Below the pieces are notes generated by a model. That model was not told where the DNA came from, made no database searches, and was given only the letters and a program-made list of their open reading frames with translations. A program made the translations under genes and the position numbers. Source: Eimeria praecox (lineage: Eukaryota). Taken from it: 64,000 nucleotides of DNA. The DNA lies in the NCBI GenBank assembly GCA_963920595.1, contig OY986946.1, positions 2,356,001-2,420,000 on the forward strand, given 5' to 3'. This document shows positions 29,982 through 30,161 of this stretch, piece after piece (within the stretch, counting starts at the first letter, position 1; each line of letters begins with the position of its first letter).

Positions 29982-30031
<50 letters not shown>

Positions 30032-30058
30032 TGGGAATCTCGTTAATCCATTCATGCA

Positions 30059-30093
<35 letters not shown>
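28993..30093 (-). rRNA. 28S rRNA 3' portion, unit 3 (interrupted; variant sequence)
   Basis: Homologous to 12005-13105 with several substitutions near 29147-29202. Confidence 0.95.
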
Positions 30094-30123
30094 CAGTGGG
30101 AATCTCGTTAATCCATTCATGCA

Positions 30124-30161
<38 letters not shown>
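30029..30161 (+). repeat. 65-bp tandem duplication of 28S sequence at the element 5' junction
   Basis: CAGTGGGAATCTC...GGCTACCT occurs at 30029-30093 and again at 30094-30158, followed by target-matching TAA. Confidence 0.97.

Follow-up and report, generated by a model that had tools for sequence, protein, structure and literature searches.

In an rDNA array of Eimeria praecox, four 28S target sites are visible, of which two carry an insertion, and in front of one of these insertions the flanking 28S sequence stands twice. The question is where the second copy came from and what it says about the RNA from which the inserted element was copied. The window, that is, the whole stretch of 64,000 nucleotides that was analysed (assembly GCA_963920595.1, contig OY986946.1, positions 2,356,001 to 2,420,000), is a tandem array of rDNA units of about 13.8 kb on the minus strand. 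Its 18S fits the coccidian primers EIF1, EIF3 and EIR3 with 0, 2 and 3 mismatches (PMC4589831), in keeping with a coccidian, probably Eimeria-like host, although EIF1 is broad in range. Both insertions are on the plus strand, antisense to the rRNA.

The first copy (30029..30093, plus strand) is upstream target DNA, antisense 28S, ending at GGCTACCT, the probable position of the second-strand break. It forms an exact 65-bp tandem pair with 30094-30158 (TRF: period 65, 2.0 copies, 100%). The second copy extends three nucleotides further (TAA), and the resulting 68 nt of antisense 28S (30094..30161, plus strand), which cover positions -70 to -3 from the nick and would be the 5' leader of the template RNA, coincide with the empty site 48727-48794 at 68 of 68 positions. 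The sequence occurs once at each of the window's remaining three target regions (13042, 48727 and 62561). The boundary between the copies, T|C, has neither microhomology nor an extra base, which speaks against slippage. The sequence-only reading had noted this 65-bp duplication with its 68-nt recurrence, and had argued that it is not a flanking target-site duplication. Both statements hold, as both copies are 5' of the element and there is none at the 3' side. We consider it rather likely that the duplication marks where the 5' end of an intact Utopia-like element, lying antisense in 28S, joins the target, the second copy having been reverse-transcribed from an RNA that started 70 nt or more upstream of the nick.

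The element is an intact full-length site-specific non-LTR retrotransposon, antisense in 28S rDNA. Its own sequence begins with a 5' UTR of 202 nt (30162..30363, plus strand, as are all its parts) that has stable hairpins at about 30200-30300 and no ribozyme match. A single intact ORF of 1461 aa (30364..34749) encodes an N-terminal CxxC..H..C finger (31177-31254), the reverse transcriptase (RT) domain (32479-33165, Pfam E 6e-32), a CCHC finger (34153-34206) and, from 34351, a restriction-like endonuclease (RLE) of the PD..D type. No RNase H was matched in the domain search of the protein. An N-terminal Myb domain had no Pfam match, and the structure model of the N-terminus, of low confidence (pTM 0.33), had no PDB match at E<=0.001. 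The 3' UTR of 197 nt (34750..34946) lacks poly(A), is joined to the target at ACGTC and had no match in an Rfam search.

A 5'-truncated copy in another rDNA unit (13106..16227, plus strand) corresponds to 31825-34946 and has the same 3' junction. As the two copies are identical across 3,122 nt, the element seems to have been active recently. Contigs of the sequencing run X1 differ from it at one site over about 4.3 kb; this run may be related to the source of the window and is not counted as independent. Close variants of the element are present in runs X2 and X3, which come from two studies and carry another organism code, and the same 3' junction occurs in two contigs of X2. The 5' junction was not found in contigs from four of the 23 listed runs, searched with the element only. 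Of the 630 reads of run X21, 628 fit the element only in part and were ignored, and the low depth over the 5' UTR in X1 and X3 may be due to filtering. No RNA run was among those listed, and runs of small share were not taken as a sign of habitat. Pattern matches to the alignment of relatives were confirmed in 0 of 299 cases in metagenome contigs and 0 of 27 in viral contigs, and those to the relative P0007 in 0 of 19 cases in metagenome contigs.

The empty site reads GGCTACCT TAAGA ACGTC. Its core was located in two uninserted units, at 48770..48797 and 62604-62631 (both plus strand). In the former the nick is placed at 48796|48797, and bases 48792-48796 are lost on insertion. The 3' ends of the full-length (34946) and truncated (16227) copies are both followed by ACGTC, and the target resumes after the full-length element at 34947, equivalent to 48797 of the empty site, with no duplication on the 3' side. 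The upstream target ends with CCT in the full-length junction and with CCT or CCTT in the truncated one (1-nt ambiguity), and a 5-bp target loss (TAAGA) fits both insertions. An 11-nt match to the truncated junction occurs in each 5' ETS/spacer (55514, 6707, 22945, 41662); it has no wider similarity and is probably due to chance. Helix 69 (48797-48815, plus strand) is ACGTCATAGTTACGT, for which S6 Fig of PMC4640811 gives GAGTCATAGTTACTC in planarian 28S, with the variant right at the nick. In the same figure the 3' flanks of LIN24 and LIN26 likewise start with ACGT or ACAT.

The following mechanism can be proposed. The protein would recognise about 27 nt upstream of the nick. The first nick, at GA|AC of the rRNA-sense strand, would prime reverse transcription, and the other strand would be cut 5 nt upstream. 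Where the cDNA includes 28S sequence, it would as a rule pair with the upstream target and leave a seamless junction, whereas here it may have been joined end-on to the cut strand, so that both copies were left. R2 RNA that keeps upstream 28S is described in such terms, with usually seamless junctions and with tandem copies after end-on joining (PMC3774820). The R2 precedent invoked in the sequence-only reading is correct as well: in R2 lineages whose self-cleavage falls 9-36 nt inside 28S, the 5' tandem duplications measure 13-28 nt (PMC3774820).

Several features agree with this reading. The upstream target ends with CCT in both insertions (one ambiguous by 1 nt), and the 3' junction is the same in both copies of the window and the two X2 contigs. 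The RNA origin of the 68 nt appears to be favoured, because the second copy runs through CCTTAA, past the CCT end, and could not be templated by a strand cut at CCT. The altered upstream 28S of planarian LIN9, described below, may be a further precedent, if it is element-borne. On the other hand, the element itself may happen to begin with TAA, its UTR being AT-rich. Moreover, the first base of the RNA would be C, with which neither HDV-like cleavage products nor Pol II transcripts typically begin, and this counts against the explanation. Finally, 65-68 nt exceeds the 13-28 nt typical of R2, although one horseshoe-crab R2 junction had 113 nt extra (PMC3774820).

It is less certain where the RNA began. 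With one full-length junction (n=1), the 70 nt upstream of the nick reached by the cDNA are a lower bound on the length of the RNA, and since the RT of this element stops early elsewhere, the junction does not fix the RNA end. Thus, of the claim that the template RNA began in antisense 28S about 68 nt upstream, the RNA origin is retained as the favoured one, whereas the position becomes a minimum. That -70 is a true, fixed end of the RNA is a close call, tilting slightly towards doubt. One possibility is that the RNA starts far upstream, by long antisense read-through of the rDNA, and that the cDNA stopped at -70 by ordinary 5' truncation, without any special site. This has the RNA origin in common with the preferred explanation and differs from it only on the fixed end. 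The truncation of the element at arbitrary points, as in the copy at 13106 and in a spacer relic described below, fits it, as does the lack of a fold or motif at -70. However, with a long leader, a stop would not often fall in just the 70 nt next to the element's 5' end, and the lengths of R2 duplications are reported as species-typical (PMC3774820). We regard such a long RNA as somewhat unlikely.

Whatever its length, the RNA would have to come from a separate antisense transcript, as the element faces against Pol I. For the RNA 5' end, which the sequence-only reading took to be an antisense start or a self-cleavage site, we lean to a putative start site within 28S rather than self-cleavage, because an antisense element cannot ride on the Pol I transcript and because there is a precedent for own promoters in R1, whose opposite-orientation insertions are cited as a sign of them (PMC2718515).

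The second copy might also have been templated by DNA, if the RT, having reached the end of the RNA, jumped to the upstream target DNA, copied 68 nt, was released and the product rejoined (template jump or repair synthesis). The copy is indeed 100% identical to the local target, and 28S-derived additions that vary, as well as putative template jumps, have been reported at R2 junctions (PMC3774820). However, the cut would have to be at or after CCTTAA and be followed by a 3-nt loss, whereas both insertions end at CCT, and two joining steps are required. This makes a DNA template unlikely.

Alternatively, this lineage of elements may carry the duplication as a fixed feature, handed down from a donor with an RNA start in or above the first copy. 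R2 of the sow bug and horseshoe crab has fixed 5' extensions derived from 28S (PMC3774820). LIN9, with altered upstream 28S sequence at many of its 5' boundaries (PMC4640811 S6 Fig), probably has one too, the altered sequence then being element-borne. The known fixed extensions carry substitutions, whereas there are none in the 68 nt here, though the units of the window do not differ in this stretch of 28S either. We consider inheritance distinctly improbable.

Self-cleavage by an HDV-like ribozyme with P1 starting in antisense 28S has the R2 precedent (PMC3774820), and the 5' region (30094-30366) folds at -73.6 kcal/mol, more stably than shuffled sequences (z -3.97). Against this, none of the 12 Rfam matches at E up to 10 is a ribozyme. 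A search with an HDV-like descriptor, which had no positive control, gave 0 matches, compared to matches in 3 of 30 shuffles. No Watson-Crick-rich P1 partner in HDV order was found for starts at 30091-30097, and no hammerhead core was found. Self-cleavage of this kind seems quite unlikely. An assembly or slippage artefact is hardly credible: the duplication is known from the assembly, but its breakpoints coincide with the cut site predicted by the element's other insertion, flanking microhomology is absent, and the rDNA units are resolved in the assembly by private variants.

The 28S gene interrupted by the full-length element (28993..37312, minus strand) is part of a block from ITS1 to 28S (28993-38349) that diverges from the other units, unlike the 18S and 5' ETS of the same unit. 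Substitutions private to the unit number 19 in 28S and 19 in the ITSs, with one in 5.8S and none in 18S. The excess of ITS over LSU is significant (p 4e-5), and 6 of 19 substitutions are clustered within 60 nt (p 5e-5). This distribution disfavours a decaying pseudogene, and the unit resembles a functional rDNA variant block more than a product of neutral decay. The block may also originate from a haplotype join in the assembly. No 5S gene was found in the rDNA units at the Rfam gathering score (whole window).

Directly 3' of the 28S gene, the spacer contains an array of subrepeats (27664..28844, minus strand), interleaved with (TA)n runs, with cores that are similar to the empty target and lie on the rRNA-sense strand, up to seven of them per spacer. 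By core comparison the same array is present in the other spacers, at about 46351-47542 and 60201-61376 and, shortened, at 11401-11856. In the spacer of the empty unit, the seven unfilled cores match the target at 22, 22, 22, 23, 21, 21 and 18 positions of 28, over a span of 28 nt that was picked once the match had been seen. Among the 3,444 28-mers of the LSU, the best one against the spacer is that ending at the nick, and all four that reach 22 overlap it. One of 2000 shuffled targets reaches 22 against the spacer, and none 23. A chance match somewhere in the rRNA is ruled out, as none of 3000 shuffled cores reaches 22/28 in SSU and LSU together. The similarity ends at -27 and about +1, and the lack of a -70 start in these repeats counts against the preferred explanation of the duplication.

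An origin of the repeats from decayed 5' ends of elements, marking the -70 start, was rejected, as the anchored alignments were not above chance: at best 7 of 60 shuffles equalled them upstream (7/7 repeats), and at best 18 of 100 did so into the 5' UTR. Selection for pairing with 28S RNA was not supported either, as the substitutions are not G-U compatible. The differences between cores and target are mostly transversions. The repeats are probably old target copies amplified in the spacer. A role as decoys is a speculation.

Within one subrepeat there is a 127-bp relic of the 3' end of a related element (28237..28363, minus strand), inserted in the same nick register with a loss of 9 bp of the target. 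It is identical to 34815-34945 of the element at 92 of 120 aligned bases; the element's 3' UTR scores 88 against the stretch just downstream of 28S, the best of 300 shuffles scoring 37. Exact copies of the relic (46927-47053, 60777-60903) bring its presence to three of the four spacers, the fourth having a deletion of about 700 bp where the relic would be. The relic ends at the GA|A register of the target look-alike, which is of the 23/28 type, and this match may be taken as independent support for the position of the nick and the upstream recognition sequence. The target of the relic is on the rRNA-sense strand, and therefore the orientation of the element follows the target sequence. Comparison of the relic with the present 3' UTR yields four compensatory pairs, although a fold based on two sequences is weak. 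The segment 34796-34814 of the 3' UTR is similar to the left half of the spacer core, and the extended microhomology at the 5' junction of the relic results from this. The presence of transposon remnants in rDNA spacers has been argued in general terms (bioRxiv 2023.02.20.529178).

Apicomplexa are described as transposon-poor, with mostly Gypsy-type elements (PMC9141347), and thus an intact, recently copied site-specific non-LTR element would be of note. The same paper reports 17 MGEScan matches in Eimeria classed as LINE R2, for which we found no target, orientation or junction given; the present family may be among them. A literature search found no description of this element, site, lineage or host, though Repbase and supplements may contain one. 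For the RNA supply of antisense rDNA elements, the junction points to one candidate base. The spacer look-alikes and the relic are a natural record from which the recognition sequence (-27 to +1) and the nick can be read. Since the upstream core belongs to a highly conserved part of 28S, studies of site-specific rDNA insertion would have in this protein a counterpart to R2 that acts on the opposite strand. Should -70 not be a fixed end, there is nothing unusual in the duplication, and it is the element and the spacer that remain of interest. In the boldest scenario, unlikely as a whole, a Utopia-derived lineage that is active in coccidia has come to the R2 hot spot by convergence, on the opposite strand, and its RNA starts at a fixed position in antisense 28S, 70 nt in, through a promoter encoded by the rRNA gene or a new kind of processing signal, while a host spacer array of amplified recognition sequence soaks up insertions or titrates the protein.

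Judged by sequence, the element is not an R2. It is on the opposite strand, its junctions are offset from the canonical R2 site, and its first nick is about 8 nt upstream (in the rRNA sense) of what we take to be the R2 nick on the other strand. It cannot be co-transcribed by Pol I, and no Myb domain or ribozyme was detected (Pfam, Rfam, and the descriptor lacking a positive control). Its best phmmer score to solved R2 proteins is 228 bits for the whole protein, compared to 500-570 bits over 801 aa for oomycete-type matches. What it has in common with R2 is the 28S neighbourhood, a single ORF with RT and RLE, a precise 3' junction, a small target deletion and the 5' tandem duplication (PMC3774820). 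R8 and R9 are given as target changes of R2 itself (PMC5035012).

In the protein search, among the 120 of 508 matches listed, six unnamed proteins are 65-98% identical over the RT-endonuclease region, and the next matches, led by oomycete elements with RNase H, are 30-41% identical. In an RT tree of 121 rows, the element and these six relatives form a long-branched clade of seven members (SH-aLRT 100), loosely placed, as the tree is midpoint-rooted and has no R2, R5/LIN, NeSL or outgroup rows. The nearest named relatives among the listed matches appear to be Utopia-type elements: besides oomycete proteins there are those from wasp, ant, turtle and Ciona (BAC82601, presumably YURECi). The layout ZF-RT-ZF-RLE in a single ORF is also that of Utopia/YURE (NeSL clade). 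Oomycete Utopia is described with RNase H (PMC4640811, Kojima and Jurka 2015), whereas the present protein has no such match and belongs to a long-branched clade. In the window the target is 28S and not U2, with both copies in 28S and the relic in the spacer. U2, as given in the supplement of PMC4640811, shares by eye TTTGGCTA with the 28S target core (48777-48788), 7 nt further from the nick; this motif, upstream of the Utopia site in U2, suggests a possible route for a switch of target from U2 to 28S. The host table of PMC4640811 has no apicomplexan, and Utopias of Porifera are described as not in 28S (PMC13580325, a 2026 review).

No named R5/LIN protein is among the 120 of 508 matches listed. 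The TTAA in the target is presumably also that of Pokey. For Pokey, a single TTAA in 28S is given as the target (PMC3849761). The planarian elements LIN9_SM, LIN24_SM and LIN26_SM (R5/LIN) are, like the present one, RLE elements antisense in 28S (PMC4640811 S6 Fig), but their sites are about 80 nt and 600 nt away, their 3' tails are T-rich and their hosts are flatworms. Thus the two features that are combined at this locus are known separately, the 5' duplications from R2 and the antisense 28S elements from planarian LIN.
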